In this document: piece by piece, positions 4,541 to 62,199 of the stretch
How positions within the stretch are numbered: the stretch's first letter is position 1
Layout: the number at the start of each line of letters is the position of its first letter
Source of the DNA: Eledone cirrhosa
Taxonomy: Eukaryota
Direction: 5' to 3'
DNA length: 64,000 nt
NCBI GenBank assembly: GCA_964016885.1
Contig: OZ024741.1
Location: 83,824,001-83,888,000, forward strand
Position numbers and translations under genes: made by a program
The notes under the pieces: generated by a model
Seen by the model: the letters and a program-made list of their open reading frames with translations, nothing else
Database searches by the model: none
What the model was told of the DNA's origin: nothing

Positions 4541-5781
4541 TATATATATATATATATATTCAAAAGAATGACCAGAAAACAATATTTTGATATGCGAAAC
4601 AAATTGTTTTAAATTCTCAAAAAAATCTACATCTTTTATATTTATTGATAATACAAAACTTTCATTTTGAAAATGGGTGCGTGTTACAACTATATGTAGG
4701 AACACAGTACTTGGTTGGCTTCTCAGTAAATATTATTTCATTGATTTATGCCCTAGATGAAATATTTTCTCTAATTCGAGTAAATATTCGTATACCAAAT
4801 TCCATTCATAGAGATTGGTTAACCATATGCTATAGTAGATGCCACTTACCAACTATGACACAGGAAGGAAATAATCTGTAACTAAGTTATTTTGAACTCC
4901 TTAACCACATATCCGGCTTGATTTCTTTGCTTAAATTATTTACAGTGATGAGTGTTTGGGACGAAGTAATTGAAGTTTAGCCTATATACCATTAATTAGG
5001 AATTTATTAGAATGAGTGTTTATTTCATTCTTGTTTATGTGCTGATGTGTGTTCCTCAGACTAACATATTTTCTTGCTTTCGTTACTACATGTTTACATA
5101 AGCAACAAATGGTATCTAATTAATTGTAACGCTACAAAAAAGAATAATAATTATTTAAATTAATAGTGAATACGAATATATTGTAGCACGTTGCTATCCT
5201 TGTTCGTAATGCTATTGTTTGTTCGTCGTTGACATTGCTGTTGTTCTTGTTTTTTATTGTTTGTTTTTTGTTCTAGTTGTAGCATGAGTAATTTCTTACA
5301 AATCAGATACATCTCTTTCTAACAATAGGCATTAATGAGCCATTTAGTATAAATAGGATCCAGGTGGTATATAAGAAATATATATGAGAAAGGTTGAGAG
5401 TATGTGTATATATATATGTGTGTGTTTGTGCCGGTATATTTAAATAGAAAGACAAGGCGGTCGATTTGGCAAATACTACAAGGCGTTCGATATTTGTTCA
5501 TTGTGTTCCACTTTTCTGTGATCTAATTTGCATTTCTTGCTCTCAGAGGAGACAAAATGTGTCAGTCTGTTGCTCGTGATACTCATGATCGTACCAACTG
5601 TCCCATGCTGTATATTACGCTCAATAATGTGAGGATGAGACGATGGGGTATCTACGTGTACATACGACTGCATGGACCCCCCCCCCCCTTCCCCGCCATA
5701 TACATATATATAAATATACATGCATATATGTATGTCCATATATACATATATATGTATGTATATATATAAATATATATATAT

Positions 5782-6470
5782 GGAAAAAATGAAATTGCAT
5801 TTCTCACTCTTAGTACGGCTGATACTTAAATATAAGTATGTATACGTACATACATATATGTATACAGACGTACAGTAGCATGTATATACATACATGCACA
5901 CATATATATATGTACGTATGGGTTTACCAAACATTTATTATAATGCTCGGTTTGTTTGTGAACAAACATCCCAAATTATTAGCCGTAGAGTGTTCGGCAA
6001 CCATCGCTGCCCTTTTGTTCAACACTGACAAAGGAACGATGAACTAGTTTCTAGCTTATTAGCTGTCATCAGCACCGTATACCTTCCTGTCAGTCGATTG
6101 AACGTTTGAAAATATATACTTTCCTTATGCATATTAACGGCTGAGCAGCCTAATTTGCATATCGAGTGAGTTAGCCGGCTGGGTGTACCGAAAATGATAA
6201 ATGGAAAAAATGAAATTTCATTTCTCACTTTTAGTACGGCTAATAAGCTAGAAACTAGTTGATCGTTCTTTAGTTAGTGTTGAACAAAAGGGCAGCGATG
6301 GTTGCCGAACACTGTACGGCTAATAATTCGGGCTGTTTGTTTACAAACAAACCAAGCATTATAATAAATGTTCGGTAAACCCATACGTACATATATATAT
6401 GTGCATGTATATATATACATACTATTGTACGTCTGTATACATATATGTATATACGTATACATACTTATAT
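5782..6470 (-). mobile_element. Retrozyme-like element: 421-bp unit with about 45-bp terminal duplication plus inverted copy (6239-6470)
   Basis: ggaaaaaatgaaatt..ttagtacggct at 5782 and 6203; 5830-6063 is inverted relative to 6239-6470; HHR at 6037-6077; octamer at 6153-6160. Confidence 0.75.
6037..6077 (-). ncRNA. Minimal type I hammerhead ribozyme
   Basis: CGGUG-CUGAUGA-C-AGCU(aaua)AGCU-A-GAAA-CUAG-UU-CAUCG; stem I 5 bp, palindromic ACUAGU stem III. Confidence 0.8.
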
Positions 6471-7002
6471 ATATATATGTATGTATGTGCGTGTTTGTGC
6501 GTGTGTGTCTGTGCATGTGTGTGTGTGTGCATGTGTGTGTATGCGTGTGTGTGTCTATATTTAGTTCGAACAATGAAAAGAGAGAGGTTGTGCCTAATTA
6601 TTCACTGCTTTAAGATGTTTCAAAGGGAAACAAAATGAACGAGGATATTAACCATATATTCACTAATAAATAGCAGTTATGTAACTCCAAATTATTAGCC
6701 TGAATACCTTACAGCCATTTTGACATTCATCTTCAGAGACAATGAGTTCCGAAGTTTTATAGAAAATATAGAAATACTATCGTTTAACGGTTAATATAGT
6801 GAAAGCAAGGCTATGCGGAAGACGGGATAGCGAAATGCATTTTTTTTTAATACACATGTAACAAGACAGCACATTTCTAGAAAAAATAAGCCTCGGATAG
6901 TTACGAGGAGATATTCAAAACCACACTACATGTGGTTTTGAACATCTCGTAAGTAATTAGGTAATTAGGTAGAATACTACATATATATAGAGAGAAAGAG
7001 GG

Positions 7003-8860
7003 GCTCTCCAACAGTTTTTAGACTTACGCCCTACCACTTACCCCAGCACTACCACTCTTCTCCATCTGGCTGAGCTTGTTCTCAACCTCAATGGCTTTTT
7101 TTTTCAGGTGAATTCTATCAGCAGGTCTCTAGGGTAGCGAAGGGAACCAGAATGGGTCCAAACTATGACAACTTGTTTGTTGGCTACGTCGAAGCCCAGA
7201 TCTTCTCTCAGTACGCTGGACCCACTCCTGAGCTATACGGTCGTTATATCGACGACTGTATCGGCGCCACCTCACTATCACGAGAACAGCTCCACTGCTT
7301 TCTTTCTTTTGTCCTATCTTTCCTATCCTGCTCTCAATTTCACCGCTTCCACATCCGTTTCTTCTGTTGCTTTTCTAGATATCTCTCTATCTATTAATCA
7401 CTCTCACCACACCCTCTCTACTTCCATCTTCATAAAACCAACAGACTTACAATCTTACCTCGACTTCACCTCCTACCATCCAACACACACCAAACACTCT
7501 ATGCTCTATTCCCAATTCCCCCGTCTTCTTCGGCGCTGTAGCTAGGACCACGATTTCGAAATCCATTCCCTTCGCATGGCTTCCTGCTTCATCCAGCGTG
7601 GATATCCCCCCACCCAACCCTGATCCAAGCTGCTCTCACCTTCGTCTACACCACAGCACTCTCACCTCACCCCCACCCTCCCAATATCCGCGTTCCTTTC
7701 CCTCTCACCTACCACCTCATCACCCTACCACTTCGGCGACATATCCTCGGTTCCTTTCGCATCCTCTCTTCTGACCCCGTCACTTCTCGCTTTTTTCCAA
7801 ACCCACCCATTACTTCTTTTAAGCGCACTTGCAACCTCCACGACCTCCTGGTTCACAGTTCCTTCTCGTCCTCTCCCACGACTCCACCCGGCTCGCATCG
7901 TTGTTCCCGTTCCCGCTGCAACACTTGTGCCTTCATTTCCACCCTCACCACTCTTACAGGCCCTAACAGGTCTTTCCGTATCCGCCACACTTTCACCTGT
8001 ACATCCACACACGTCTATACCCTTCGGTGTTCCCTTTGCAGGTCTTTATACATCAGAAAAACCGGACGCCGTATGGCGAACCGTTTTGTCGTGCATTTGA
8101 GGGACATACAACTCGTTTTGGATACTCCTGTCGCCCGTCATTTTTGTTCTCCTACTCATTCTTCCCTACATGTTTCAGTCCTGAGTGTCCTTTTACATCA
8201 TGGATCACAGGCCTCGCGCACTAGGACTGAACAAAGTCTGATTCACCGCCTTGGGTCCTATCCCCTCTTGGACTCAACTCACCTTCCCAATTTGTCTAAT
8301 ACCCCGTCCATTAGCACACTCCTAGATTCCTATCGCTTTCTCTTGATCATTAACATCTTGTCTTTCAACTAATACAGGCCGACTATATATGCTCACTCCT
8401 CTTTTCCATTCACTGCTCTATATACACACCTACACACCACATACTTTTGCTCATAGCTTCGTACTTACATGCACAGACACACTTTTACTCAGATAGGCAC
8501 ACACATATTTCTTCTTAGCTTCGTACGGACGTATAATAACACACACACACACATCCTTACACACGTGCACAAGTATAGCTCTTTTTCATGAGTGTTTTTT
8601 TTTTCCATTTCAGGTAGACGCGCTCCATCATCCACTTTTCTAAAAAATAAATCATACACAAAACGCCAACACCAACAGTTTTGCAAGAGTTGTCAACATA
8701 ATGGACCTTTTATTTTTATCTAAATACATTTTTTCCTATTCCAACCCGCCCCCGTCCCCTCGTTCTTTCTTCTGGTGATGGACTAGAGTCCAAACCTAGA
8801 TACTCTTCCTGCTACATACTGAACCGATGTGTTGTTATTTCTGTTTAATTTTACATATAT
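7003..8860 (+). mobile_element. Neptune-clade Penelope-like element, 5'-truncated and disrupted (RT + GIY-YIG + pLTR)
   Basis: GTRMGPNYDNLFVGYVE, RYIDD, KPTD..YLDFTSYHP, SQFPRL; Cys linker (RCNTC), NRFVVHLRDI..PVARHF; degenerate HHR at about 8768-8800. Confidence 0.85.
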
Positions 8861-15380: not shown

Positions 15381-15450
<70 letters not shown>

Positions 15451-15465
15451 AAAACTTATTTCTCC

Positions 15466-17580
15466 TTGAAGAACATCCCTATCCCTCCAAGGAAACTATA
15501 CTTAAAAACACTCATCAGACGTACCGACGAGTTCATCAAGCGAATTAGATGGAGGGCCTTCTTCCTCGACAACCCTGATGTAGCATCTACCAATGATGAG
15601 AAATTCGGCTTCAAAACGAATAAGATACCACCCACCAACAGCCTACTCCAACCATTTGAAGAAGACCTCTTCAAGTTGATCAAGGATATTAAATTCCGTA
15701 GAGCCATCACACCATTCCAGGCCTACTTAAATGCCGAATTACGGAATATAAAAAAATCTCCTAATCTTTATGTCTCCTCCGATAAAACCAAAAACGTTTA
15801 TGAGGTAGACCCACAGACCTACAATAAGCTGGCAAAAAATACCATCACGACCACCTACAAAAAGGTAATAGAGAGGGCACTGACTGAGACAAACGCGGCC
15901 GGAAAAGAAATCGCCAAGTCCCTTAAGTTACACGACCGAACCGAACCTTTAAGGGTAAAGACCCCGCACTTTACCCTGAAGGACCATAAGGGAAATTTCC
16001 TCAACAAACCATCAGTCAGACTTATCAACCCCACTCGTTCTGACATCGGCTCTATCAGTAAGAAGATCCTGGATAGAGTTCTACCATCATTGCGGGCAGC
16101 CTCACCACTTCCACTCTGGAGCAGAACATCTGAGGCAATATCATGGTTCCAAAAATTACCCGATAAACACCACACTCGCTTCCTGAAACTCGACATAGAA
16201 AACTATTATGCCTCTATCTCGGAGCCCCTCCTGAAGGACGCAATTAACTTTGCCAGGAATTTTACCACCATTACCGATGCTGAGCAAGTTGTTATCCTCC
16301 ACGCTCGTAAGACCTTTCTATACCACGATGGATCTTACATGATCAACAAGAAATCTCAGACCCCATTTGACGTTAGCATGGGGGCGAGTGACTCGGCTGA
16401 AATTAGCGACCTTGTGGGCCTGTTCATCTTACATAACCTGAAGAACCTCTTTACCGGCCTAACGGGAGGTTTATACCGAGACGACGGCCTCTTCGCTCTG
16501 CATAAGGTTAACCTCAGAAACACCGATGGGTTTCGGAAAAACTTAAGCACTTTCTTTTCTAATCTAGGATTTAGTATAACTATAGATTCTAATTTGACTA
16601 GGGCCAACTTCTTAGATGTCACTCTCGACGTAGATACTTCCCTCTATTACCCGTACCACAAACCTAACGAGTCCCTTAAATATATTAATGTTAATTCAAA
16701 CCACCCCCAAAACATCACTGATAACCTAGTAAAAAGCGTTTCTATTAGAATATCTGGCCTCTCCGCCAACAAAGATATTTTTAATGCATCTGCCTCCTAC
16801 TACAATGACGCCCTCGCCCGTAGCGGATTTAAAGATAAGATAACTTACCTAGAAACCACCGCAAGATTGCAGAGGAGGAATATACATAGGCAGATTAGCT
16901 GGTACAACCCTCCCTTCAATAGAGAGGTATCTACTCCGATAGCTAGGATTTTCTTCACTTTACTGAAATTACACTTCCCCATACAACATAGGTACCACAC
17001 CATCTTTAATAAGAACACAATAAGACTGTCTTACTCCACCACACCTAACCTAGCTAGGAATATAGCCAACCACAATTCTAAAAAATTAAATAAGCCAACT
17101 ACCTCCGAAACCAATCCCCGGACTGGGGCTCTATGTAATTGCCTAAATAAGGAAGCATGCCCAAATGAAAACAAATGCCTCACAAATGATATCGTATACA
17201 AATGCGATGTCATCTCAGGCGCCGAGGATTGCAAAAAAAACTTACATCGGCATGACCTCCAACAAATTTAAGACCCGTTGGTATGCCCATACCCACTCCT
17301 TCAGAAGACCGGATAAATCAAATCAGACAACACTCGCCTCCTACGTTTGGGACCTCAAAAGGAACTCCACCCCCTTCACGCTTAAATGGAAAATACTCCA
17401 GAAAGCGCGCTCTTACAACGGAGGACACAAGGGCTGCGACCTTTGTATTTCATAGAGCTACGAAATTTAATTCGCCAAGGGCCCGCTACTGAACAAACTC
17501 TCTGAACACTGCCCGAACTGCATGCACAAGAACTTTGCAACTTTCAAACACTTTAAGCCAGTGTTAAAGCCCGATGGCTA
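15466..17580 (+). CDS. Penelope-like element RT + GIY-YIG endonuclease (probably Hydra clade); frameshifts near 17235 and 17452
   Basis: 601-aa ORF with [39 protein letters not shown], CNCx5C linker, IVYKC; continues in the next frame with YIGMT..KTRWYAH..CDLC. Confidence 0.9.
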
Positions 17581-21934: not shown

Positions 21935-21961
21935 ATGTATTTATATATATATATATATATG

Positions 21962-22822
21962 TATGTATTTATAGTATATTTGGCAATATACCGTATGTTT
22001 AATTAAAAACACTTTGAAGACCATACGCTATAGGTTTTAAAGTAGCGACTATGTCACTTACTTCTTTTCGGCGAAAGAAGGGAGAGGAGCTAACAATCTG
22101 TTTCACGCTGTTTGGCTATCATCAGAGGCACACACTCTCTGTTCCCGCCGAAAATTATAGAAGATGGATTCTTATAGAATTCCAGTAATGAACAGGAGCT
22201 GATTATACAGAGCGATTGTCGATCAAGCAAAAATTAGGTATTAGGATTGGTGCTCTGAAATAGCGATGCATACATGAATGTATGTATAGTATATTCAGCA
22301 ATATACCGTATGTTTAATTTAAAACATTTTGAAGACCATACGCTATCGGTTTTAAAGTAGTGACTATGTCACTTAGTTCTTTTCGGCGAAAGAAGGGAGA
22401 GAAGCTGACAGTCAGTTTCACGCTGTTTGGCGATCATCAGAGGCACACACTCCCTGCTTCCACCGAAAATTATAGAAGCTGGATTCTTATAGAATTCCAA
22501 TAATAATCAGGAGCTGATTATACAGAGCGATTGCCGATCCAGCAAAAATTAGGCATTAGGATTGATGCTCTGAAATAGCGATGTATACATGTATAGTATA
22601 TTTGACAATATACCGTATGTTTAATTAAATCGCCAAACAACGTGAAACAGACTGTTAGCTTCTCTCTCTTCTTTCGCCGAAAAGAAGTAAGTGACATAGT
22701 CACTACTTTAAAACCGAAAGCGTATGGTCTTCAAAATGTTTTTAATTAAACATACGGTATATTGCCAAATATACTATACATGCATTCATGTATACATCGC
22801 TATTTCAGAGCACCAATCCTAT
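21962..22822 (-). mobile_element. Retrozyme-like element: about 310-bp unit x2.1 in tandem plus inverted partial copy (22630-22822)
   Basis: aatataccgtatg recurs at 21985, 22300 and 22607; HHRs on minus strand at about 22089-22129 and 22404-22444 (CUGAUGA-U-CGC(caaaca)GCG-U-GAAA-CUGACU-GUC). Confidence 0.75.
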
Positions 22823-24465: not shown

Positions 24466-26279
24466 ATATATATGTTATATACATACTGGATATTTATAAA
24501 TGTAAGATTTATGGGTTTTCATGAAATACATTTTATACAAGTGTCTCTGTTTGGTAATTCCATAAATATGTATGGTATATTTGCTGCGGCAATTGCATCT
24601 GTGCAGAAATAGAATATAAGCAAAATACACTCGACTAAAGTATGGCTAGAAAGAGATTGGGAACAAAAACAAACAGAGAAACAGAGAGAGGAGAGCGATG
24701 TGCTAATAATATATGAGATTAAGATTCCTTGGACTAAGCTGTACGGTATCACTTGGGAAATGAAATTTGAGCTGCTTAATGCTTCGCCATTCACTTGATC
24801 TAAACTCTCTGACATGACATATTGGCAGCAGAACAGAATAGATTTTGCGCTGTTATAGTTTCTATATATCCTCAAGAGAATTGAGGAAGAAAGATTTTAA
24901 GATAGACCCGCTTCAATCTGTAATAGATATAAGTAATTTAAAATCAACTAAAGGAAGTGGGGATGTAAAAGTAGGGAAAAAAGAGGAAACATAGAAAACT
25001 GATAGAGAGCAGTTGGTAATGTTGTCATTTAATTGAGGATATCAGTTGAAAAATACATGAAAGGCCTGAGGTAGTTGACATTCTTCAGTGTCAAACGTTG
25101 TGTTATTTAGTCCCACATGTAGCTTCGTCAAGAAGCAATGATACTTACACTTGCCAAAGAATGGAAAGAATGGGAAGCACTAAATAATGAAAGAAGGATG
25201 CAAGAGAATAGCACTTCTTTGTTTGAAGCAATGTTCCAGTTATAGTAACAACAAAAACAACACCTGCAGCAGTAGCAGCAATAACAACAAAATCAAAAAA
25301 ATAGGCAAACACAGTATCAACTTCAAGAATTATACACTATCAGATATAGCAATAACATTTTATTTAATTCACACTCTGCCATCCTGTAAATTGTAATGTG
25401 TAAGACTACTCTCACAGTGTAGAATATATAATAACAACAATATTAAGATGGGATTATTCATGGCTAATATATTTTAGATCAGAGTTTTCCATGTTGGAGT
25501 TACCTCTCACTCACACACTTTTATCACAGAATATATTTTATCCACACTCTCCATTGTAAAGTGGATTTAAACAAATATGTATTGAACATTTAATTTTTAT
25601 ATTTGCTAATATTTTATTCCTTGCGCATATATTGAATAATTAAAGGTGAAGGAATAGCGTGCAAATATTAATTTGCATTCTTTGTCCCTTTCCTACTTCA
25701 CAACTCCTTGTTTCCAGCGACCTGTTACAACGCCATTGCTTTCTGTTGTCAGTGTTCAGTCTCCTAGTACTTTGAGAATCACTGCTTTCGACCATAAATT
25801 TGCTTAATCATGTTTGATTTGGAAGGTAAATAAAGTAAATACCTATAATAACGTTTTCTAATTTCGGCTCAACTCCAGATATTATGGCGGTAATGATGAT
25901 GTCGACGACGAAGGTGACAACGACGATGATCCTGTTGATGATGATGATGATGATAATGATGATGATGACGGTGGTGGTGGTGGTTGTGGTGATGGTGGTG
26001 ATGGTGGTTACTCAATGAATCTATTAGTAACACCATCAGAAATAAGATGAAAGGAAGCAAAAGAATGAAACGAAAATAAACAAAATAAATATAAGATTCA
26101 ACATAAAACCAATGTGTACTGTCATTTTTGCGTGATGCAAAAATTAATGTATTCATAGAACACATTCAAAAATTATAGATAGATAGAGAGATGGTTAGAT
26201 AGACAAATAGACAGATAAATAGACAGAAAGATGGATAGATAGTTACATAGATGTTTTGAGAGATAAATAGTGAGATAGG

Positions 26280-28875
26280 GTATTGGCAGCAGATGGATCT
26301 TCTCACCAAAGGAGCCCGCTTCTTCCAAATGAATTGGAAGAGAGCATGCTCCATTTTGGGGAGAGTTTTGGCTGAGCAAGCTACGACGGTCAAGCGGTAG
26401 TAGATGGCGGACGCTATAAAAGTGTTCGCCACCTCCGCTCGACCTTTCAAGGATAGTTTGCACTCGGCCCACTTCTGGGTGAGTGCAAACATCTTGGCCG
26501 TCACTTCGTTCCAGTTCTTCTCCACCTGGAGGTCCGGACCAAACCAGACCCCGAACAGCTTTACCGGTCCTTCCGTCCAGCGTCCGACGACGCATCGGAA
26601 GGCATCGGTCTGCCTCTCCACGATCCGAGTTGCAAACCGATGGACCTGTCCCGGTTCAGCTTCGCTCCTGTGAAACTTTCGTATTCCTCCAGTAAGGTGC
26701 CGACTTCCTCGATTTGCGAGGTGCTTGACACCACTACTGTTACATCGTCGGCGTAGGCCGACGCCGCTTTCCGCAGTCCCGGTTCCAGAGGGATGCCCTG
26801 CAATAGCTCCAACTTCCGCAGTAGTGGCTCGAGAGTCAGTACGTACAGAAGGGAGGAGAGAGGGCATCCCTGTCGAATGGATCGCGTAATATGGAACGGC
26901 TCCTTGAGGTAGCCGTTCACCTTGAACCTTGAGCAGATGTTGCTGTTGTGCATTGCAGCAATCCAGCCCCTGAACACGGGTCCGAAGCCTGCTGCCTCGA
27001 GCACCGCATCCAGGTAACGATGGTCAACCCTATCGAAAGCCTTAGACTGATCCAAGTTGATCAGGGCCCCACCGAAGCCGGGTTTACACCCTACCCTCTC
27101 TATGATGTATCGCATGAGGTGGAGGTTGTCGTGTATGGACCTGGTCGGGATTGCGCATGTCTGCGCTTCTCCCACCAGGTTCTCGGCGACAAGCGCCAGC
27201 CTCTTTGCCAACACCTTGGCCAACATCTGTAACTCTGTGTTTAGCAGAGTTATGGACCTTATTCTCGTCCTTCCTGATTAGTGTGACCACGCCCCCGATT
27301 ACAGAGCTGGGAATTCTCCCGTTCTGTTGCCAGTTGCAGTAGACCGCTTCCAGGAGACCGGAGAAAAGGTCCGGCATTGCTACGTAAAATTCGTAGGGTA
27401 GACCGTCGAGACCTGGAGATTTGCGTTTGCCGCATTGGCTCAGCGCGTCCCCTATCTCAGCGGCTGAAATCGGCTTTTCGCAGAACTTTGCCTCGCTGTC
27501 CGAGAGTCGCGGTATGCCGACGAGGTATGGACCGAAATCCATAGCCCCTCCCGGCGCCCCCCCCCCGAACAGTTGAGCAAAGTGCCGCTGAAAGGCCGCA
27601 CACATCTGCTTCGGGTCACGTATAACGCGTCCGTTTTGGTCCTTCAAAGACCGAATCGTGGACTTGTTACCACTTTTTGCCTCCGTCACTCGGGCCCAGC
27701 TAACAGCTTTGGCTCCCTCGTTTCCCAGAGCACGTATTTTGCTTCTGACAACGCAGCCCTCGTGCTTTGCCTCGAAGAACTGGTCCAAGGCCGTTCTCGT
27801 TGCTAGCACGCTGGCTACGTTGCCACTTCTAATTGCCTCTTCTACTTTATCTACCAGTTCCTTCTCGGTTCTATTTCTATCTAACGCTAATTCTTTACTA
27901 AAAACTATCGAGTCTAATCTAACTGCCCTCTTGAGAGAGTACCACCATATGTTGTTGACAATGGCCCCTGTCAAGTGCTGTTTAACTAAAGTGCTAATCC
28001 GTCTACTGTAGGCTTTGCTTGTCGGTAACGACAAGTTCAGCTTCCAGTAGCCGGGTCCTTGTCTATGGGTTCTATCAAGGTTGACCATGCAGGTCACTAG
28101 TTTGTGATCTGAATAGGCAAACATGAACATTTGTGGACAGCTTAACATGTCCCTATCCTTATTTCTAACTAGAGCCCTATCTAGGTACGATCTAGATGTT
28201 CCGCTACGATTACTCCACGTCCACAGTGGCGCAGTCGGAAAATCTAGTCGATCTCTATCGGCCAGGTCAAATCGGTCGATTAACTGTTTGAGGCTGTTAC
28301 ACTCCCCTTTATCGGGACATGCTCCCACATAGTCCCAACGTGCATCTAGGATTCCATTCCAGTCCTCCACTAAAAGCAAGGAGCGGGACGTTCCCAGAAA
28401 AGTCTCTAGACGTTTGAAGAAGTCTGGCCGCGGTGTCCCGGATGGGGCATATGCGGCCACCAGCCTGAAGGCTCCACCTTCACTACCTTCAACGTCTAGG
28501 ACCACCAGTCCACCCTCCGGGTCCAGATGTACCGTCTGTGTTACGAGGCACAGGTGTTTCCGCAGCAAAACGGCAAGTCCGCCCCCACCCCCCGGTTGAC
28601 AGAGAGATGCGTAGATCTCAAAGTCATCGAAGATGGGGGCCAGCTGTCGCTCGCTGTGGATCCTGGACTCGCAAATGGCCACCACATCCATACTGTGCGA
28701 CCTGAGGTCGTTTAAGAGTTTGCCCTGTTTCCAGGGCATCCCCAGGCCGCGTACGTTCACACATCCAACTCTTATATTGGCCATGTTGGTGCTGAAGAGT
28801 TAAAAGAGGAAAAGAGATCACTCACCCTTTCTCTCCTGGGGACCAGGCTGCACGATTTCCATGGGGGTGTTGGTG
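26280..28875 (-). mobile_element. Tx1/L1-clade LINE ORF2 (APE endonuclease + RT), disrupted, 3' end missing
   Basis: CVNVRGL, ICESR, DWN, SYLDR, SDH, GYWKLN, KSPGLDGLPYEFY, LDQSKAFDRV, RQGCPLS, AYADD; bounded by (GATA)n. Confidence 0.9.
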
Positions 28876-30303: not shown

Positions 30304-30344
30304 CTGCGTGTGTGTGTACATACATATACATATAAATAATTGAC

Positions 30345-30540
30345 TAAGGAATTGTGGTAAGGAACCAGAGGACCATAACGCACTAGAGTACTCAATACTC
30401 AGGGTAGTAGAGTGGGTAATAGGAAAAAGTATGACCCCGACGGCAGAGCTCAAGCCGTTTCGACGGGTATTTCTGGACTCAGAAATAGCCGTCGAAACGG
30501 CTTGAGCTCTGCTGTCGGGATCTTACCTTTTCCTATAAAT
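30345..30540. mobile_element. Short PLE-type family with a fold-back (30433-30522) carrying HHR 3' halves; other fragments at 12189-12262, 20720, 21398-21450 and 43575-43690
   Basis: Shared gaccccgacggc.gagctc..gccgtttcgac; GAAA-CGGC..GCCG-UC-GGGGUC. Confidence 0.65.
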
Positions 30541-30871
30541 ATTTGTATATATATATATATACTTAATTATATATATATAAAAACAAATAACGAAACGAAA
30601 TTAAATTTCGTTTCGTTTGTAACTCACTTTTGTATGACTGACGCTTAAACAATTAAGTTAAAAATGTACATCCACATATGTATACTGAAATACTAGTATG
30701 CATATGAATACACACACGTGTACATATGTAGATGTACCGAGTTTTTCACTGGACACTTTACTGTGAGTGTCCAGCTATTCTGTATGTAAACACACAGACA
30801 AACCGGTTTTTAGAGTCATACTGGTTTTCGAGGAAACACCTTTCCTCTATTCTCCAGAAAGCCAGACAAGG

Positions 30872-30916
30872 AATATTGGACTAGTTTCGATGTTGTTACA
30901 TCTCATCAGCAATATT
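30872..30916 (-). ncRNA. Canonical minimal type I hammerhead ribozyme
   Basis: AAUAUUG-CUGAUGA-GAUGU(aaca)ACAUC-GAAA-CUAG-UC-CAAUAUU; 7-bp stem I, 5-bp stem II, GUC site. Confidence 0.9.
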
Positions 30917-31001
30917 TACCTATCTTCCGGCCTTTCTAGAGAATCGTAAAAGCACATATCGTTATATGCTTTTTCTATGAAAATTAGTAGTGGGCAGACT
31001 A

Positions 31002-31009
31002 ATTTGCAT
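31002..31009 (-). promoter_or_regulatory. Octamer ATGCAAAT upstream of the HHR (also at 31468-31475 and 6153-6160)
   Basis: Exact octamer in the conserved context actcac..tATGCAAATtag.ctgc.ca in two diverged families; function is inferred. Confidence 0.45.
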
Positions 31010-31337
31010 AGAGCGTGAGTACGTACCGGTTCAGCGGAGACGATAAAAACAAATAACGAAACGAAATTAAATTTCGTTTCGTTTGTAACTCACTTTTGTA
31101 TGACTGACGCTTAAACAATTAAGTTAAAAATGTACATCCACATATGTATACTGAAATACTAGTATGCATATGAATACACACACGTGTACATATGTAGATG
31201 TACCGAGTTTTTCACTGGACACTTTACTGTGAGTGTCCAGCTATTCTGTATGTAAACACACAGACAAACCGGTTTTTAGAGTCATACTGGTTTTCGAGGA
31301 AACACCTTTCCTCTATTCTCCAGAAAGCCAGACAAGG

Positions 31338-31382
31338 AATATTGGACTAGTTTCGATGTTGTTACATCTCATCAGCAATATT
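31338..31382 (-). ncRNA. Canonical minimal type I hammerhead ribozyme (second unit)
   Basis: Same sequence as 30872-30916, 466 bp away. Confidence 0.9.
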
Positions 31383-31644
31383 TACCTATCTTCCGGCCTT
31401 TCTAGAGAATCGTAAAAGCACATATCGTTATATGCTTTTTCTATGAAAATTAGTAGTGGGCAGACTAATTTGCATAGAGCGTGAGTACGTACCGGTTCAG
31501 CGGAGACGATAAAAACAAATAACGAAACGAAATTAAATTTCGTTTCGTTTGTAACAAATTAGTCTGCCCACTACTAATTTTCATAGAAAAAGCATATAAC
31601 GATATGTGCTTTTACGATTCTCTAGAAAGGCCGGAAGATAGGTA

Positions 31645-31689
31645 AATATTGCTGATGAGATGTAACAACATCGAAACTAGTCCAATATT
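31645..31689 (+). ncRNA. Canonical minimal type I hammerhead ribozyme (inverted copy)
   Basis: aatattg ctgatga gatgtaacaacatc gaaa ctag tc caatatt. Confidence 0.9.
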
Positions 31690-31910
31690 CCTTGTCTGGC
31701 TTTCTGGAGAATAGAGGAAAGGTGTTTCCTCGAAAACCAGTATGACTCTAAAAACCGGTTTGTCTGTGTGTTTACATACAGAATAGCTGGACACTCACAG
31801 TAAAGTGTCCAGTGAAAAACTCGGTACATCTACATATGTACACGTGTGTGTATTCATATGCATACTAGTATTTCAGTATACATATGTGGATGTACATTTT
31901 TAACTTAATT

Positions 31911-31982
<72 letters not shown>

Positions 31983-34570: not shown

Positions 34571-37500
34571 TAAAATAACAGATTAAAGTTTAAGCAAAGA
34601 ATCGCTGCTTTCACCCTTAACGGGATCTTCTGAAACTAACAAAGTCAATCTGTAAACGCAGAACTGGATATTTCAAAAAACGTTGCAACCGGATGAAGAC
34701 AGGAAGACGATATTTTGGTTTGTGGAAACGTTCGCTGGCAAAGAACGGGAAAAAACGAATAATACGTCATTAATAGAAGCGGTGAAAAACAATTACGCGC
34801 AAAGACAGAACCACGTTTATGGTATAAAAGAGATCGTAGACTAATGTTCTCTTAGGTGTTGCATAGAGACGTTCTCTGGCAATGAACGAAAAAACGAAGA
34901 TAATAAGTCATATGTGGTGGAACCCAGCATTGCTACCCTTCTAAAATGATGTCTTGGAACTCATTCGGAGTATCAAATTTCGGAATAGGAGCAATTCCTT
35001 CCAGCTAGACCTGAAGAATAGAATTCGTTCTATTAAGGATTCTAATGCCGTGCACGTCCATTCCGACAAAACTGGCAACCTATATCAAGTGGAGCGCAGT
35101 ACTTACCATCAACTACTACATAATGCTGTAACTAAGGATTACCGTAAAACTAATCGGTGTGTCGTCAATTAAATCAACGATGCTGGGTTTAAAATCACAT
35201 CTGATCTTAACATCCTGGACTGGACCGAACCTCTGGACCCTATCTCTCCCCACTTTACCCTGAAGGATCACAAATCCAATTTTCCGAACAACCCTTCTAT
35301 TCGGCTTATTAACCCTACGAAGTCCGATGTAGGTAGACTTAGTAAAACGATTCTTGATAGAATTATACCTGAAATTAGAAGTTTGGCCCCTCTCGCACTG
35401 TGGAACAATTCTTTCGCGGTGATTGATTGGTTGAACGGCATATGTAACAAGGAACATTGCCGTTTTATCCAATTCGACATCAACAATTACTACTCCTCCA
35501 TCACTTTACCACTTCTCCTTAGAGCTATCAATTTCGCTAAAACACTCACAGTGGTTAAGGATTTCGAAGTTGATGTCATCCTTAATGCCCGAAAGTCGGT
35601 GATTAATTTCGACGACTCTATTTGGATTAAAAAATCCAATAATACCCCATTCGACGTGAGTATGGGCGCCAGTGACTCTGCGGAGGTTACTGATCTTATT
35701 GGCCTTTTCCTTCTTTTCTCTATCAAGGACGAATTCGCCAACGCGGGCGGTGGTTTGTACCGTGACGATGGTCTTTTGACCATGACTAAGTGCGGACCTC
35801 GTGCTTGCGACAGGTTCAGAAAAGAACTCACAGCCTTCTTTAAAGGCTTCAACCTCTCTATACAGGTTGAGGCCAATCTCTCGGTCGTTAATTACCTCGA
35901 CGTTACCCTCAATTTATTGAATGGGTTGTATTACCCGTATAGAAAGCCGAATGATACGCTTAATTACATAAGTAAGCATTCCAACCATCCTGCCAGCATA
36001 ACCAAGAACCTGGTAAAAAACCTTTCGTTGAGGCTTTCCCGTCTTTCCACCAACGAGCGCATTTTCAACGACCATTCCACTTATTACAATGAAGCTCTTG
36101 CTCGAAGTGAATTTGTCGATAAGGTAGCATATACAGAGTACGAAAATAGACCTAGAAGAAATAGATCCCGTCGCATTTGTTGGTTTAACCCACCATATAA
36201 TATGGAGGTGGCAGCACCATTAGCTAAGATCTTTCTTTGCCTTATTACGAAGCATTTTCCCCCTACACATAAATATAGTAACATTTTTAATAGAAATACT
36301 ATTAAAATTTCTTACTCTACGACTCCTAACCTTGCACATAACATCACAGCTTCAAATTTAGCTAAACTACCTAGCCGTAGGAACACGTGCAACCCTGTAG
36401 GTAGTACTAACTGTAATTGTAGGAATCGGGCTGATTGCCCCCTATCCGGGAAATGCCTCTCTAGTAACATTGTCTACAAATGTAAGGTTGTAACACCCAC
36501 GTCCCGTAGGGCCTACATAGTGTTAACCGCCAATAGTTTCAAGCAGCGTCTTTAAATGCATAACCATTCTTTTCGTTACCCTCTAAGAAGGAATATGACG
36601 TCATTTTCAGCTTATATCTGGAGTCTAAAAGACAACCACACCCAATATAAGTTACACTGGGAGATCCTAGCTAGGGCTAGATCGTATTACGGAAATAAAA
36701 GACCATGTGACCTCTGCGCCGCTGAGGCCCTGGAAATACTCTACGCCACAGACCACATCTTAAAAAAAATATCTGAGGCAATTTCGGCTTGTAAACATAA
36801 ATTGCACAAAACTTTTCTGTATTACAGCCCCACGTTATACCCTAACGGATAGCACGATCTATACGTGGATATTTTACGTCTTGATGTGGGAGCTAAGTAT
36901 ATGTTTTGTTTATTCCTTTACTTATTTGCATAGGTAAGTATATATTACCCGTATGTTTTGTGAAGGTATGTATACCTTCTCGTACGTATATTTGACTGTT
37001 ATGGCGTATAATCTTTACATATTCTGGTATTTAGTGTTTGGCTATGTGTATACGGGAGTTTTGCGTCTGCGTGAGTATGCAGGTTCGTACGTATGGTGGG
37101 TGTGTGTATATGTGTACTTCTTGTTTTAGTTGACTTACGTCTCCGAACATTCGTCTATTTATTTGTAGGTATGTGTGTGCGCTTCTTATATACGTATTTA
37201 CTTACTTATATACGTTTATATAATTATTTATTTATTTGTACACAAGCATACACACACACACATATTTATATGTGAGTGGTTTTGTATACCTATGGTAAGG
37301 TTTTGCGTATGCTTGTGTATGTACGTATCTGTTTGCGTGTATGTATTTATTTGTTTCTATTACTTCTGTATTGTATTTATTTACTTTGTTCTTAACTCTG
37401 TAGCGGAGATTCATTTGGTCTCCTAGTTAGAATTTTAGTCTACGACTTCTGCTATACCATTTACGTGGTTTTGTCTTTGCGCGCTTTGTTCTCCACGCTC

Positions 37501-46422: not shown

Positions 46423-49400
46423 TTTCTTTATTAACCACAAGTAGACATTAAGGACAGTACAGGACAATACAGGGCGGTACAAATGGGCATTTCTGCGTGT
46501 AAAAAACAAAAACAGAGGATGTAACAAAAAAATAACACTGCCTGCCCTTCCCGACTAAAGGAAGAGGGCGGGGCAATCCTCACGATGGACTTAGATAATA
46601 GCCGGATCCGTCCTACACGTGAGAGCAGGTGTTCGACATAAACCCACAAGTCAGCAATGCTCGGACAATGGACGAGTGCGTGCAGGACGGTTTCGTCGCC
46701 CTGGGCGGATCTCGGACATGCCAGACTGACGGCACCTCCATGCCTGTAGAGTTTATCCCGAACTGGCAAAGCTCCCCGGTAGCACTGCCAGGCCAGGGAT
46801 TTCTGGAAGTTGTCCATAGGCCACGGCCCGAAAGTTCTTCCGAAGAGATTGGGTATTTGATTTTCGTCGACGCCTAGAGTTTCCCCAAGTAAGTCGTCGC
46901 TCTTCCCCTCCACTAATCCCCTATAGAACGCCAAGGTGGAGTTTCCACCGATCGCATTGCCCGATTGGTCGAGGGCTGTGAGCGCCTGAAGACATTCCAG
47001 TCTCTAAGTGCTCCCTCTCGGTCTTCGCTTGACCCAGGACTGCAGCTCCGTCAAGGAGACGAGCTGGGGAAAGACGTGATCACCGTCAAGGAAGAGGTGG
47101 AGATGTCGTAGCCTGAGCGCATGTCTGCGCATCATCAGCCACGGCATTCCCAGCCCTCCTCGTAGCGGGTGTTGACTGCAGATGGACCGCCTGGCCATCG
47201 GAGCGCGTCCCTTCTACATAAAGCGAAAGAGCAAACGCTCTAGCGCAGTCAGGCGGGGATTAGGACAAGGTACGACGGTCAGGCGGTAGTAGATGACGGA
47301 CGCGATATACGCGTTAGCCACTTTCGCTCGACCTTTCAGGGATAGCTTCCTCTCGGCCCATTTCTGGGCGAGACAAGCCACCCTGCTCGTCACCTTGTCC
47401 CAGTCTTTGTCCGTCTGGAGATCCGGACCGAAACAGACCACGAGCAATTTCACTGGTCCGTCCGTCCAGCGCCCGACGACGCTGTTGGACGGCATGGACC
47501 TGCCTCTCCAGGTGCGCAGCTGCAGGCCCACTGACTTTTCCTGGTCGATCATTGCTCCTGTCAACGCTTCGTATTCTCTTAGTGTAGTGCCGATCGCCTC
47601 GATGTTTTTGGCGTTCGACACCACTACGGTGACATCGTCCGCATATGCTGACCCGGATCTTCCGCATCCTAGTTCGCGCGGGATTCCCCTCAACGTCTCC
47701 AGTTTGTGCAGTAATGGCTCGAGAGTCAATACGTACAAGAGGGACGAGAGGGGACATCCTTGGCGGACCGAGCGCATGATGTTGAACGGTTCCGAAAGGT
47801 GACCGTTCACTCTCACCACAGAGCAGATGTCGCTGTGCATGGCAGCGATCCAGCCTCTGAAGACGGGCCCAAAGCCAGCCGCCCTGAGGACTGCCGCTAG
47901 GTAACGATGGACGGCCCTATCGAAAGTTTTCGACTGATTTAAATTGATCAAAGACCCACCCGTGCCAGGTTCCTTAGCTAACCTCTCTACGATGTATCGC
48001 ATGAGGTGGAGGTTGTCGGGGATGGATCTGTTGGGAATGGCGAATGTCTGCGCCTCTCCCACCAGACCACCAACGACAAGCGCCAACCTCTTTGCTAGCA
48101 CCTTGGCCAAAATCTTGAACTCTGTGTTTAGCAGAGTTATGGGCCTAAAATTATCTATGTTATCCCCCTTGTTCAGATCCTTTCTCAGCAGCGCCACAGC
48201 TCCTCGGCTCACAGAGCTGGGAATTCTCCCGTTCTGTTGCCAGTTGCAGTAGACGTCCGCCAAGAGGCCTCCGAACAAGTCTGGCATCTGTACGTAAAGT
48301 TCATAGAGCAGACCATCCAAACCAGGCGATTTACCCCTTGTGCAGCTAGTCATTGCCTCCCGTACTTCAGCGGCTGTTATCAGCTTTTCGCAACACTCCG
48401 CCTCAGTGGCCGAGAGCCGCGGCAGTCCGTCGAGGTAGACACTAAAGTCCATCCCTCGACCCGGCCCACCGCTTCCCCCGATCAGCTGAGCGAAGTGTCG
48501 CTGAAAAGCTTCACACATTTGCTCGGGATCGAGTAGCATGCGCCCGTCGTGGTCCACCAAAGACCAGATCGTGGCTTTGTTGCCACGACGCGCCTCCGCC
48601 ACTCGGGCCCATTGAACGGCTTTCGTCCGCTCGTGTCTGAGAGCACGCACCCTAGCTCTGACAACGCAGCCTTCGTGCTTTGCATTGAAGAATTGGTCAA
48701 GGGCCAATTTCGCTGCAAGTACGTCGGTCGCGATGCCTTTGCTAAGCGCCTCGTCTAACTAGTTCTCCCTCTGCTCTATTTTTCTCTATTGCTAAAGCCT
48801 TACTAAACCTAATGGACTCTATTCTAATTGCTCTTTTCAGAGCAAGCCACCACGATCTTGTTGACCATGGCCCCCGTCAACGCCCGCTTAACTAGTTCGC
48901 TAATCCGGTCTCTGTAGGCCTTGCGCGCTGGTAAGGACGCGTTTAGCTTCCAGTAGCCGGGTCCTCGTCTATGAAGCCTATCTAAGTCAAGTACACAGAT
49001 CACGAATTTGTGATCCGTGTAGCTGACTATCTTGAATTGTGGACAGCCTATGCTAGACTTATCTATTTCTCTACAAAATACTCTATCTAGATATGATATG
49101 GATGACCCTATACGATTTTTCCAAGTCCACATTGGCACATTCGGGAAATCCAATCGGTACCTGTCAGACAGTTCAAAACGACTGAGCAGGTTGGTGATGC
49201 TCTTGCACCCTCCTCCCCTATCCGCTAATGCCACACAGTCCCATCGTGCATCTAAGATCCCGTTCCAGTCGCCCACTAACACTAAAAAGCGGGACGTTCC
49301 AATAAAGGTCTCCAGACGCCGGAATAAATCAGGCCGCCCTGATCCTGTCGGGGCATAGACAGCCACTAGCCTGAAAGCTTGCCCGTCTCCGCTGGTCACG

Positions 49401-51980
49401 TCCAGCACCACCAACCTACCTTCTGGGTCCAGGAAGATGGCCCGTATGGCGAGATCCAAACCTCTCCGACAAAGCACAGCAACTCCGCCCCCTGATCCAG
49501 GACGGCTGGGAGATGCGTACACATCGTAGCCGCCGAAGATCGGTGCGAAGGTCCGTGCTTCGGGGGATTCTGGTCTCGCTGATGGCCACTACATCTATGT
49601 TTAGTGACCTGAAGTCGTTTGAGCAGGTGACCCTGCTTCCATGACGACCCCAAGCCACGCGCATTTATGCTGCCTATTTCGTAGAGGAAGGATGGTTTCT
49701 CCATCCCTTTTTACTTGATCGTCTGGTGAAGGGACCGTTGAATCGTCCCTTCGGCTGGTCGTCGGCTCTTCTATAAGTATGTCCGAATATAGTCTCCGGT
49801 TGAGAGTCCCTCCTAGGTCTCTAAAATCACCAACTGCGTTGGGGAATTTCGTTATTATGTTTGTGTATTGTTTCTGTGTTATTCTTACCAGTCTTATGTT
49901 CGTTGGTGTTTTGATTGGTGCTGGTATTATGCAGTCGTACTGTGAAATGTCTGTGTGTTCAATTATGTAAGTCATTAGTTTCTTGTTGTGTGTATTTATT
50001 GCTGTGCATTTGTTTTTCTGGGTGGGCTGTGGTTCTGCTACTTTCTTGTCATTGTTGCTGGATGTGTGTGTTTTGTTGTTGTGTTTGAGATGTTGGTGCT
50101 TGTGGTGATGGTGTTGAAGGTGTTGTTGTTGTTGGCGGTGGGGTTGTCGCCGGTGGTGATGGTGGTGCTAGTGTGGGTGGTGATGGTGTTGGTGGTGTTG
50201 CTGCTGTGAGTCTCTTTGCAGTAGCCTTTACCCTTTTTTCATTTCTTTCCTCCTTTTTCGAAGGCGTCGATGCGCTGCTTCTGCGTTTGTGCCTTCTTGC
50301 GACCTTTTGCCATCCCTCTCCCACCTCACACTCCATGTCTGATTCTGTGAGGTCGGGGAGGGGTACCAGCTCCACTCTTTCACTTATTGTTGTTGGTGAT
50401 GTTTGCAGTGGAGTCTCTGTTGCAGCTGCAGTTGGTATTACTGTTGTTGCTTTAATACGTCCACTGCTGCTGCTGTTCTTGATTTCCGTGGCATGGGTAT
50501 GGGTGCCACGGACCTATCGTTCCTGGTTGTCGCTTGTCCTGTTGTGATAGCTGTGGAGCCGGTTTCAGAAGGATGGGGGTTTTCTCCTTTCTCAGGGTCT
50601 TCTCGTTGAGAAGGCCCTGAGGTGAGTCTTCGATCCATAGTGAAAGCATTTCGGGCGTTTGCCCTCATCACTTATGGGCAGTTGAGTGCCGTTATCGAAG
50701 TCTATCACATCCGAAATAGCTTCGATGCACTCCTGGTTGGTTCGTATTATCATCTCAATGGAGGTGCCGACCGAATCTTCTCTTACTTTTTTCTGTACTT
50801 GCAGTACAGTTGTTTTGTCCTCGATTCCGACGAGGACAGACGCAGCCAGCCAAGAAGGGGCCATACCGGGGGGTACGTGGGTCAGTTTGACCCTCACAAT
50901 TTTTTTCCCGCAGTAGGAGGGCACCAACACCATTTCCTCGCTCCTTAGGGTCACTAAGGATTGAGCCTTTGCCTCCTGGGGTGTGGCAAAAAGCACGTCT
51001 ACGGTGGCATATTTCTTGCCTCGGGTGATATGCGTTTTACGCTGCCACACAGACCCTAAGGCCTTTTGTATTTGAGCCTCTGTGGCTCTTTCAACCCTAC
51101 GGGATTTTGTGCTTACTGTACGGTACGTGACCGTACAGTGCTGTTGGGATTTCGAAAAATGTTTCGGCTGCCTTGCAGATTGCTCGGTGTCCGGTTTTCG
51201 TCTCCATCTTCTTTGCTTCCTGTAATTCCCCATTTGTTATGAGGATGGTTTCCATGTTCTTTGCGATACCTGCAAACGAGATTGGTCTTTCTTTGCTGCT
51301 GTTGTTGTTGTTGTTGTCGTCAGAGCTGCTGTTACTTTTGTTGTTGCTGCAGGTACTACGACTACTGTCGCCGCCGTTGTTGCTGTGGTTGTAGTTGTTG
51401 TTGCTGCTGCTGATGCTGTTGCGGCTGCTACTGTTGTTTTCCTTGTCACTGTGGCGGCTGCAGCTGCTGTTATTACGACTGCTACTGCTATTATTCATGA
51501 CGTCAGACGAATGAAATGGGTTTTCGTATTTACCGCACACCTTTTTCGTCGTTGTAGTCGTCGTGGAGAAATGTTCCATGTTTTGCACGTGATTTTGGAA
51601 ATTATTTTTCTTTACTGGCGTCGCTTGCGAAAGAGAAGGGAGGGAGAGAGACACATTTAAAGAAGGGAGGGAGAGAGACAATCTTCTCTCTGCTGTAGTG
51701 ACGATTGAGGAAGAAGAAGACAGAATGAGTGGGAGTGACTTGTGAAAATTCTTTTTTGTAGCCATCTTTCTTTTTGGTTTATAATAATTATTGGACACAA
51801 AACCCAAATAATCGGTTATTTAACTCCGAAGGGCCAAATAACGGGCAGAATGACCCCTATCACGAGGAGGACGGTGTTTTTGTCTACAGTTTGGTCAAAG
51901 TTTTAAACAATTTACAATTGTTATAGCGGTCAAAATTTACAATACCTTACAGAGTCAAACCTCCGTCAACCATGGCATTC
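46422..51980 (-). mobile_element. Near full-length Tx1/L1-clade LINE (ORF1 about 51807-49700, ORF2 about 49704-46530), disrupted, flanked by (AAT)n
   Basis: ORF1 with degenerate zinc knuckle (KCFHYGSKTHLRAF) and N/S- and T/P-rich tracts; ORF2 SINARGL, GDWN, YLDR, TDH, GYWKLN, FRPITLLN, RQGCPLS, AYADD and C-terminal CPR..ET..HAL..C. Confidence 0.9.
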
Positions 51981-55000: not shown

Positions 55001-57007
55001 TCGATTGATTGGATAGATTATAAAAAAGCATTCGATAGTTTGCCACACAGTTGGATTGAAAAATGTTTAGAGATTTTCAAAATATCCCCCGTTGTCAGGA
55101 GGTTTTTGTCATTCAGTATGAAGACATGGAAAACGACACTCCTTTTGAATAGTGAAACAAAATCACTGGAAGCTGGAGAAGTTAATATTAATTGTAGAAT
55201 TTTTCAGGGTGACTCTTTATCACCGCTTTTATTCTGCATCGCACTTATACCATTAAGTAAAATGCTCAATGAAACAAAACATGGATATAAAGTCTATGAC
55301 AAAACCATTAATCACCTGTTCTACATGGATGACCTGAAACTATTTGCAAAAAATGATGAACAATTTCAAGGGCTATTATCCACTGTGGAGAGGTTCAGTG
55401 ATGACATTAAAATGGAGTTTGGAGTAGATAAATGCGCCAAAGCAACGTTCAGCAGAGGAAAGCTGCTGAAGAGTTCAGACATTAATCTTGATCGGGGGAA
55501 CGTGATAAGAGAACTTGATCAAGAAAAAACTTACAAATATCTAGGTGTTTGTGAAGGAGACGGAATCAAGCACTCGACAATGAGGGAAAGGATAAGGAAG
55601 GAATGTTACCGCAGAGTAAGAGCAATCTTAAGAACGGAATTGAATGCATGGAATAGGATCGATGCCATAAACACGCTTGCCATAACAGTAGTAACCTACA
55701 GTTACAATGTCATCAACTGGTCAAGCACAGAGATCCGTAGGCTCGATACAAAAATTCGAAAATTCTTAACCATGCACAGAATGCATCACCCTAAGGCAGA
55801 TATACAGAATATATGTCCCTAGGAAAGAAGGAGGACGTGGGTTGATCCAGTTAGACATTGCGTTGAAAACTGCAACAAATATCTACATATCTAAGGGAAT
55901 CACATGATTGGATGATCAAACTCGTTTTGAAACACGAAAGCATCAAAAGATCATATTCCATTACAAAAGATTCACAAAGTTACAGTAATGGACTACAAAT
56001 TTCAGGAGTCCCATTTACTGCTGAAATGGAAAACACAGAAAAAGCAAAGCAGGTAAAAGTAACTGCAAAGAATGAACTGCTACAGAAACTGGCTAAGAAA
56101 TGGCAAGAAAAGCCTCTGTATGGAAAATACCCAGAGCGAGCTAACAATCCTGATGTTGACACAACTTTAACTCTCAGTGGTTGGCATCCTCTGGACTGAA
56201 ATCGGAGACTGAAGGACTGATTATATCAGCACAAGATCAGTGTCTGCTAACAAAAAATTACCAAGCCAACATAATAAAAAATGGGTGCAGTCCATTATGC
56301 CGTGTATGCAAAGAACAACCAGAGACCATTGACCATATAATTTCAATGTGCAGTCCTATAGTTCCAACCGAATACCTAAACAGGCATGACAGAGCTGCAC
56401 AATACATACATTGGATAATGTGTAAGCATTTTGACCTGCCCCATCAAAAGAATTGGTGGGAGCATCAACCACCTCCCATACTTGAAAAAGATCACATCTC
56501 AATCTTGTGGAACTTTAGCAACCAAACAGACCGAAAAATAGATGCAAATAGACCTGATATAATATTGAAGGACTTTCAAAAGAGGGTATGTCTGCTAATT
56601 GATATGTCTGTTCCAATAGACAAGAATGTATCTATAAAAACATTTGAAAAATTGAGCAAGTATAAGGGACCTGGAGATAGAAATTGGAAAAATGTGGAAA
56701 TTGAGAACTAAAACAATACCAGTGGTTGTAGGCGCTCTGGGAATGATACCTAAGGGGTCTAATGATTACATATCGCAAATCCCAGGAAACCTGCGTATAG
56801 GAGAAATACAAAAGATAGTACTAATGGGAACTGCCCATATACTAAGGAAGATTCTGTCAATATAATTACATCACAAGTCTAAACACTAAAGATGCATGTG
56901 TGAATATGTATGTTCTTTATTGAACATGGCGGACCTTGTTGTCTCTTGAGGTCACTGGTTGTGACTTGGTGATAACTCGTATGAACATAAAGCAAGATAA
57001 ATGCAAC
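52062..57007 (+). mobile_element. R4/Dong-clade non-LTR retrotransposon, copy 1 (single ORF about 53223-56865, disrupted)
   Basis: YRPITCL, IDYKKAFD, IFQGDSLSPLLF, YMDDLK, CRVC..ETIDHI..C, RHD, NRPDI..ID..K..KY (RLE domain); (TAA)n on both sides. Confidence 0.9.
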
Positions 57008-57061
<54 letters not shown>

Positions 57062-57063
<2 letters not shown>

Positions 57064-61981: not shown

Positions 61982-61995
61982 TAATAATAATAATC

Positions 61996-62168: not shown

Positions 62169-62199
62169 TGTAATAATAATAATAAGAAGAAGAAGAAGA

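Follow-up and report, generated by a model that had tools for sequence, protein, structure and literature searches.

The window, that is, the whole 64-kb stretch of DNA analysed here, belongs to a 3.0 Gb genome that is AT-rich and rich in microsatellites. Positions 5782 to 6470, which a sequence-only reading had taken as one unit, really hold three pieces: a full retrozyme unit of subfamily A (minus strand, 5825..6245), 421 bp long, 37% GC and non-coding; a tail (minus strand, 5776..5824) that consists of the next unit's first 43-49 nt up to a fixed 3' end, where it passes into (TA)n; and an inverted partial copy of A (plus strand, 6236..6473; unit positions 180-419, 92.5% identity). The inverted arm is joined to the full unit via about 10 nt of microhomology and its 3' end (position 419) adjoins a TA-rich flank. 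Read along the minus strand, the full unit first shows a terminal hairpin with a T6 run (6204..6226), recognised from sequence and fold, which lies just before the fixed 3' end, is repeated in the tail at 5783-5805 and is a candidate reverse-transcriptase recognition site. It is followed by the octamer-containing 12-mer TATGCAAATTAG (minus strand, 6150..6161), which doubles as the 5' arm of an RNA hairpin in the predicted fold, by a TATA-like box region (minus strand, 6108..6123, with the box at 6118-6113) placed 43 nt after the motif start and at a hairpin centre, and by a predicted type I hammerhead (minus strand, 6037..6077) with the core CUGAUGA...GAAA and a predicted cut after 6042.

A sister locus of subfamily B lies on the minus strand at 30577..31915, flanked by (TA)n runs. 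It comprises a pair of identical units, each of 466 bp, together with a tail of 47 nt and an inverted arm (positions 84-444); the motif lies at 31476 and 31010 and the hammerhead core at 31375 and 30909. When unit A (6245 to 5825) was compared with unit B (31555 to 31090), every part that had been named for the minus strand was present in both and in the same order, with TATGCAAATTAG at 6161-6150 and 31476-31465, TATA-like boxes at 6118 and 31434, CTGATGA at 6072 and 31375, and GAAACTAGT in both units. CTGATGA is located 80 nt (A) and 92 nt (B) past the octamer end, within the 80-95 nt first given for the hammerhead. The terminal motif is likewise present in both units, and we place it in a predicted hairpin, as we do the octamer and the TATA-like box. 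The two units had been said to share these parts and yet to differ overall; the shared parts stand, but the units align end to end. Their whole-length local score is 195 versus 28±4 in 500 dinucleotide shuffles, and the part upstream of the ribozyme alone scores 78 versus 21±3 in 500 shuffles, with no shuffle as high in either comparison. Since they can be aligned over their whole length, A and B are true homologues. Both the 421- and the 466-bp units have 37% GC, and B forms tandem arrays. The only ORF-like feature in the unit is a low-complexity stop-free stretch overlapping the TA-rich end; there is no LTR pair, the layout being tandem/inverted, and the unit holds no RT or GIY-YIG ORF of the kind that marks an autonomous Penelope-like element (PLE).

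The non-LTR retrozyme to which A and B belong has at least eight subfamilies. Among 4394 first-look candidates, the 40 A copies with the best scores show 92-95% identity to the window copy, and B copies are 99-100% identical and stand in long arrays. A hammerhead-core pattern gave 37,992 genomic matches, a number that includes an unrelated-looking 311-bp family, and 0 in the reversed control. A motif-plus-core pattern avoiding intact A and B gave 519 matches (control 0), the first 30 loci of which belong to the subfamilies labelled A, D, E, F, G and H-like, and a pattern with the host motif-to-TATA spacing gave 101, mostly of an older family, J. The representatives of D, H and most of those of J were chosen through the motif, J having one complete unselected copy, and homology between the J spacer and the A-H spacers was not significant. 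J carries a T6 run directly after the ribozyme. Subfamily E has three tandem motif-like copies upstream with a period of about 31 nt, and an inverted motif-like copy lies nearby in F and G. One H-like copy was located on the minus strand about 500 nt upstream of an E copy, A2 and B arrays are nested in one another at TA-rich ends, and one sequencing run joined A-type sequence to the B terminal hairpin. Scars of A-to-I editing were not seen in B1 copies (A>G 6, T>C 4 in 40,522 aligned bases from overlapping loci). The sense strand of A copies shows A>G 62 versus T>C 34 and G>A 151 versus C>T 108, an asymmetry in which subfamily structure may be a confounder.

Other repeats share the window. Frames at 15086 and 15385-17570, at 35173-36850 and at 7138-8372, all on the plus strand, are presumably PLE-like because of RT and C-terminal GIY-YIG-like motifs; a Pfam scan of these three PLE-like frames returned 0 families. 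One of them is preceded by a hammerhead of different sequence, and hammerheads related to that one are frequent in random genome samples. A short hairpin-rich repeat end (30340-30525) lies beside the B insertion, and decayed non-LTR retrotransposon frames occupy 26166-28799, 46431-51236 and 53765-62981.

Predicted hammerhead ribozyme

In the window copy, stem I is CGGUG/CAUCG, stem II is AGCU/AGCU and stem III is the palindrome ACUAGU, of 2 bp. As had been noticed, stems I and II of B (AAUAUUG/CAAUAUU and GAUGU/ACAUC) are different and still pair. The comparison was extended to 19 hand-picked representatives, 15 of the motif lineage and four of the 311/315-bp lineage, in which 84.6% of 247 cells pair and 10 of 13 pairs change on both sides. 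The covariation score was 0.678 versus 0.243 in shuffles (0/500 as high) and at most 0.116 with the partner slid; it is not to be read as a probability, because we assigned the structure using the consensus, and the representatives are related to one another. This covariation supports one of the proposals made from the letters, that the hammerhead is under structural selection. At pair 10.1-11.1 of stem II, A has a C.A mismatch and B has G-C. This position is unpaired in 11 of the 19 representatives, the window copy included, so that cleavage activity, that of the window copy among them, may be low. Stem III is short and mostly palindromic throughout (ACUAGU, ACAUGU, ACGCGU, ACAGCUGU), and a short palindromic stem III has been linked to dimer cleavage (PMC6765202, PMC7229834). 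An Rfam scan of the 64-kb window gave 0 matches at the gathering score, and the hammerhead call is therefore based on motif and covariation.

Promoter elements in the host and matching motifs in the retrozymes

We looked at the promoters of the host's own small-RNA genes. The sequence TATG(C/G)(A/T)AAT(T/G)AG, allowing at most one mismatch, is found at -77 to -79 in five of five unrelated U6/U6atac/MRP promoters (three unrelated U6 types, the best U6atac locus and the single MRP gene), against a background of about 8e-5 per 5-nt slot, and the TATA box of these genes stands 47-49 nt after the motif start, at about -30. None of 14 U1/U2/U5/RNase P promoters has the motif at that place. It is also missing there in six of 14 U6 loci, namely one dispersed copy and five array copies in which the promoter is interrupted and the motif lies about 190 nt further upstream, and in 13 further dispersed U6 copies and seven other U6atac matches. 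The 14 U1/U2/U5/RNase P promoters show AATTA near -90 (not in RNase P), (T/C)CAGT near -57 (in RNase P at -67 from the model start) and TATA near -30. A TATA box in U1-class promoters is unusual for animals. Host small-RNA promoters form two classes, U6/U6atac/MRP versus U1/U2/U5/RNase P. The layout of the RNase P promoter is that of the U1 class, but its gene is followed by a T9 run. Each repeat of the U6 array holds a second motif-plus-TATA block with no U6 gene behind it, and some repeats have an insertion between TATA and gene. Dispersed promoterless U6/U6atac copies, several of them beside (TA)n or Penelope-like tails, are likely retrocopies.

Because the octamer is placed at -77 to -79 in U6/U6atac/MRP, it is a proximal, U6-class element in this host. 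The 12-mer probably equals the extended POU2F binding consensus. A different motif, TTAYYTCCCTT, is the host distal element, occurring at -257 to -288 in 11 of 19 promoters with at most one mismatch; it was not found for U6atac and is weak for MRP. It is absent from units A and B, where 96 of 300 and 245 of 300 shuffles, respectively, score as high. The octamer had been read as the distal element of snRNA-type promoters, the position it has in human (-250 to -170; PMC9652321), and this assignment does not apply here.

The proximal motif, in the form TATGC(A/T)AAT(T/G)AG, is present in A and B. Within the 165 nt examined upstream of the core, TATGCAAAT(T/G)AG is the sole 10-mer block common to all eight subfamily representatives. 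Among six representatives the motif is 92-100% identical, as against 40-74% for the DNA between motif and core (shuffled baseline 42%), and its predicted pairing partner varies. The conservation of the octamer, claimed at first from two units, is borne out by these comparisons. Since most representatives had been found with the motif, the search was repeated using downstream sequence only. Eleven of the 16 matches among these unselected copies (800 kb evenly spaced samples), a set from which subfamily D is absent, have the motif at no more than one mismatch; three others have 2 mismatches and in two it is replaced at junctions. The motif is also present in 19 of 19 hammerhead-selected loci and in 181 of 186 A/B loci, which overlap heavily. 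In A copies, six of 444 motif cells are mismatched versus 3-4% elsewhere, and the contigs aligned to A contain no variant within 6150-6161 among the matches listed (40 of 44).

Of 70 distinct copies gathered without selection for a TATA-like box, 57 have one at offset 42-44. The spacing is 43 in A and 42 in B, and all of A, B, D, E, F and G keep to 42-44, that is, 4-6 nt below the host; in the older subfamilies J and H the spacing equals that of the host, at 48-49, and one complete J copy was found without TATA selection. The spacing is regular within six subfamilies, but agreement with the host's 47-49 is seen in J and H only. Retrozyme TATA scores are below those of the host, and three F representatives and two H-like copies have no clear TATA. 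TATA+30 precedes the core by 12-29 nt in seven representatives, which leaves room for the 5' strand of stem I. By host geometry, transcription of A would start at about 6088-6083, and in tandem context the motif lies about 74-78 nt from the predicted start. A U1-class three-block promoter was considered for A, B, D, E, F and G and rejected, its score being no better than shuffles, and TCAG at +17 in A, a putative U1-type element, was dropped with it.

The match to the host U6/U6atac/MRP genes and the conservation across subfamilies both speak for the internal snRNA-type promoter proposed earlier, which is as yet a prediction, and the retrozyme probably does contain a working internal promoter of the U6 class. 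Promoter motif and predicted RNA fold, however, occupy the same bases. The units are highly self-paired (computed z -8.8 for the window unit and -13.2 for B, each against 40 crude dimer shuffles). Pairing takes up 86-90% of the motif, which makes one arm of a hairpin in A, B, D, E and G, and the TATA occupies the middle of a hairpin whose arms covary. As both elements lie in predicted hairpins, RNA structure could explain part of their conservation. On such grounds, and because the motif-to-TATA spacing of most subfamilies is unlike that of host genes, one might suppose a retrozyme without a promoter of its own, transcribed passively by the host, with octamer and TATA kept as RNA features, either hairpin arms or a protein-binding site on the RNA. 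But pairing alone predicts that both arms change, as they do in stems I and II, whereas the motif arm is fixed and its partner varies. The agreement of the fixed sequence, T/G variant included, with the host U6-class motif would then be a coincidence, and the host spacing in J and H another, so that we judge passive transcription unlikely.

The motif could also act on DNA in a narrower way. In this subfamily (A) it might be a site for an octamer factor that serves as an activator only, the TATA being vestigial and transcription starting elsewhere or at scattered points. A spacing 4-6 nt, or half a helical turn, below that of host genes and J/H would fit such a role, as would the several F copies without TATA and the multimerised motif of E. 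This possibility seems quite improbable to us, because six subfamilies whose identity otherwise approaches the random level keep the offset of 42-44, and the distance between TATA+30 and the core remains within 12-29 nt.

With an internal U6-class promoter as the preferred reading, the T-runs bear on the polymerase. The first run of T4 or longer after the predicted start comes at 298 nt in A and 272 nt in B (P 0.12 and 0.24), and T4 avoidance as a Pol III signature was discarded as not significant. Insertion ends were also considered as Pol III termini, an idea that was abandoned because most A ends extend past the T6 run. Pol III would be impeded by T5-T6 runs within the units, and the copied template runs through these tracts, which favours Pol II. 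Type 3 promoters can load Pol II in mammals (PMC9652321, PMC11340601). We lean slightly to Pol II over Pol III as the transcribing polymerase.

A second, abundant hammerhead lineage with units of 315/311 bp is devoid of the octamer motif and is represented in the window at 21955-22629 (minus strand). In its 311-bp unit, the 3' arm of stem I contains the host distal element, which scores 19.9 (0/300 shuffles as high) and precedes TATA+30 of the following unit by 257 nt; the score in the 315-bp unit is 8.6 (16/300). The proximal blocks of the 311-bp unit have U1-like spacing by eye, but the U1-like blocks of the 311- and 315-bp units do not reach significance, with 67 and 7 of 100 shuffles scoring as high. 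A tentative reading, about which we have more doubt than confidence, is that retrozyme lineages took up both host small-RNA promoter classes into their RNA structure, the octamer lineage the U6 class and the 311-bp lineage the U1 class, with host spacing in the old subfamilies and a shorter spacing in the younger, expanding ones. If so, the 4-6 nt shorter spacing may have switched the polymerase and let transcription pass the T-tracts into full units, and the distal element of the 311-bp unit, being in the stem I arm, would make a complete promoter only in tandem copies.

Insertion anatomy and proposed mobilisation

In 30 A loci the 3' ends fall at unit position 44-49 in 26 cases, at 36 and 54 in two and at 419 in two; the A query ran to tail position 36, which favours tailed copies and not the end point. 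All visible B 3' ends are at 46-48 or 438-444, nearly always against (TA)n, and the tails measure about 50 nt in A and about 70 nt in B. An inverted piece lies upstream in about 19 of the 30 A loci, counted by eye, and in both window copies. The 5' truncations, also judged by eye, show no evident pile-up at the cut site or at the predicted start. The flanks consist of (TA)n or similar repeats, and for this reason a target-site duplication cannot be read in them. These arrangements resemble what is described for PLEs. A PLE protein cleaves AT-rich DNA and begins reverse transcription at two internal sites, with the tail between them (PMC11167929), and PLE features include tails, inverted 5'-truncated copies and (TA)n targets (PMC8557442). 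The element is almost certainly a retrozyme with Penelope-type insertion marks, and given such marks its copying likely needs a retrotransposon protein acting in trans. The phrase minimal replicon, used when the locus was first described, was accordingly too strong for it. Since the inverted arms and the extra units span the promoter region, the template was longer than one unit, and we infer a circle or a multimer.

A self-sufficient, viroid-like RNA replicon whose DNA arrays arose by ordinary satellite amplification would be compatible with the highly self-paired circular fold and with the long B arrays, whose units are 99-100% identical. Insertions that are dispersed and show fixed ends, tails and inverted arms point, however, to reverse transcription, and the opposite strand of the unit yielded no hammerhead core; we give this explanation very little credence. 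The whole of the evidence is best explained, in our estimation with fair probability, by a Penelope-mobilised retrozyme with an internal U6-class promoter, and not by a self-replicating RNA. In the Penelope-mobilised retrozyme, a host octamer-binding factor and TBP would set the start of transcription at the base of an extended stem I, 12-29 nt ahead of the core. The polymerase would read on into the next unit, so that the promoter is copied into the RNA. Two hammerheads, probably dimerised via their palindromic stem III, are predicted to release a monomer that can be circularised. The PLE reverse transcriptase would then start at two internal sites on circular or multimeric RNA, with insertion into (TA)n sites likely performed by a Penelope-like element's enzymes, and the fixed 3' ends, the tail, the inverted 5' arms, the multi-unit arrays and the (TA)n flanks seen in the DNA would be the outcome of this step.

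Comparison with known systems

The element is a member of the non-LTR retrozymes, a class already described. Like the metazoan retrozymes of Cervera and de la Peña (2020, PMC7229834), it consists of tandem units of low GC and a few hundred bp with a type I hammerhead, has a self-paired fold and neither ORF nor LTR, and is present in thousands of copies; PLE mobilisation was also proposed there. Cleavage and circular RNA, which are predictions for the window element, were demonstrated for those retrozymes. The 466 bp of B exceed the 150-450 bp given in PMC7229834 and are inside the 51-972 bp of Li, Clavereau and Pollet (2026, bioRxiv 10.64898/2026.07.22.740005), who describe tandem hammerhead repeats related to, and co-occurring with, PLE pseudo-LTRs. 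That preprint is centred on vertebrates, and its main text does not mention promoter, octamer, snRNA, Pol III, octopus or cephalopod. In the accessible text of PMC7229834, promoter refers to T7 only and no promoter analysis is given; here, a host U6-class motif is present in eight subfamilies. The likeness to PLEs (PMC11167929, PMC8557442) extends to the tail between two RT start sites, the inverted 5'-truncated arm, the AT-rich or (TA)n targets and the hammerhead, but PLE tails are reported as 30-40 bp as compared with about 50 nt (A) and 70 nt (B), and the RT/endonuclease ORF is missing here.

Animal retrozymes are reported to be highly expressed, and neither PMC7229834 nor Li et al. (2026), in the text available from each, states what drives this expression; in the sources cited, internal promoters are attributed only to newt and schistosome repeats. 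The present case supplies exact bases, matching host genes and a predicted start site for retrozyme transcription. Its series of subfamilies with two spacings is a natural test of polymerase choice, and as a by-product the U6-class promoter of this animal is mapped, which is of use for guide RNA expression. Our literature search, whose scope stopped short of subscription journals, Repbase/Dfam and bioRxiv supplements, returned no paper on this motif in a retrozyme. What appears to be new is the host U6-class motif inside retrozyme subfamilies, and the internal promoters of the newt and schistosome repeats are its precedents. The Pol III promoter of the schistosome Sm-alpha/Sj-alpha repeats is tRNA-like.

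In the vertebrate snRNA promoter (PMC9652321) the octamer is distal, a position that it has neither in the window unit nor in the host. Newt satellite 2 (Coats, Zhang and Epstein 1994, as cited in PMC2220036 and PMC6765202) is a hammerhead repeat of about 330 bp with a weak palindromic stem III and an internal snRNA-type promoter. It is cited as a Pol II snRNA promoter, whereas the match seen here is to the U6/U6atac/MRP class, with proximal octamer and TATA and without the distal element. Schistosome Sm-alpha/Sj-alpha (PMC6765202, PMC2220036) resemble our units in the order of promoter and then hammerhead and in tandem units that transcribe the next; theirs is cited as a Pol III promoter, and the putative promoter of the retrozymes described here has upstream, type 3-like elements.
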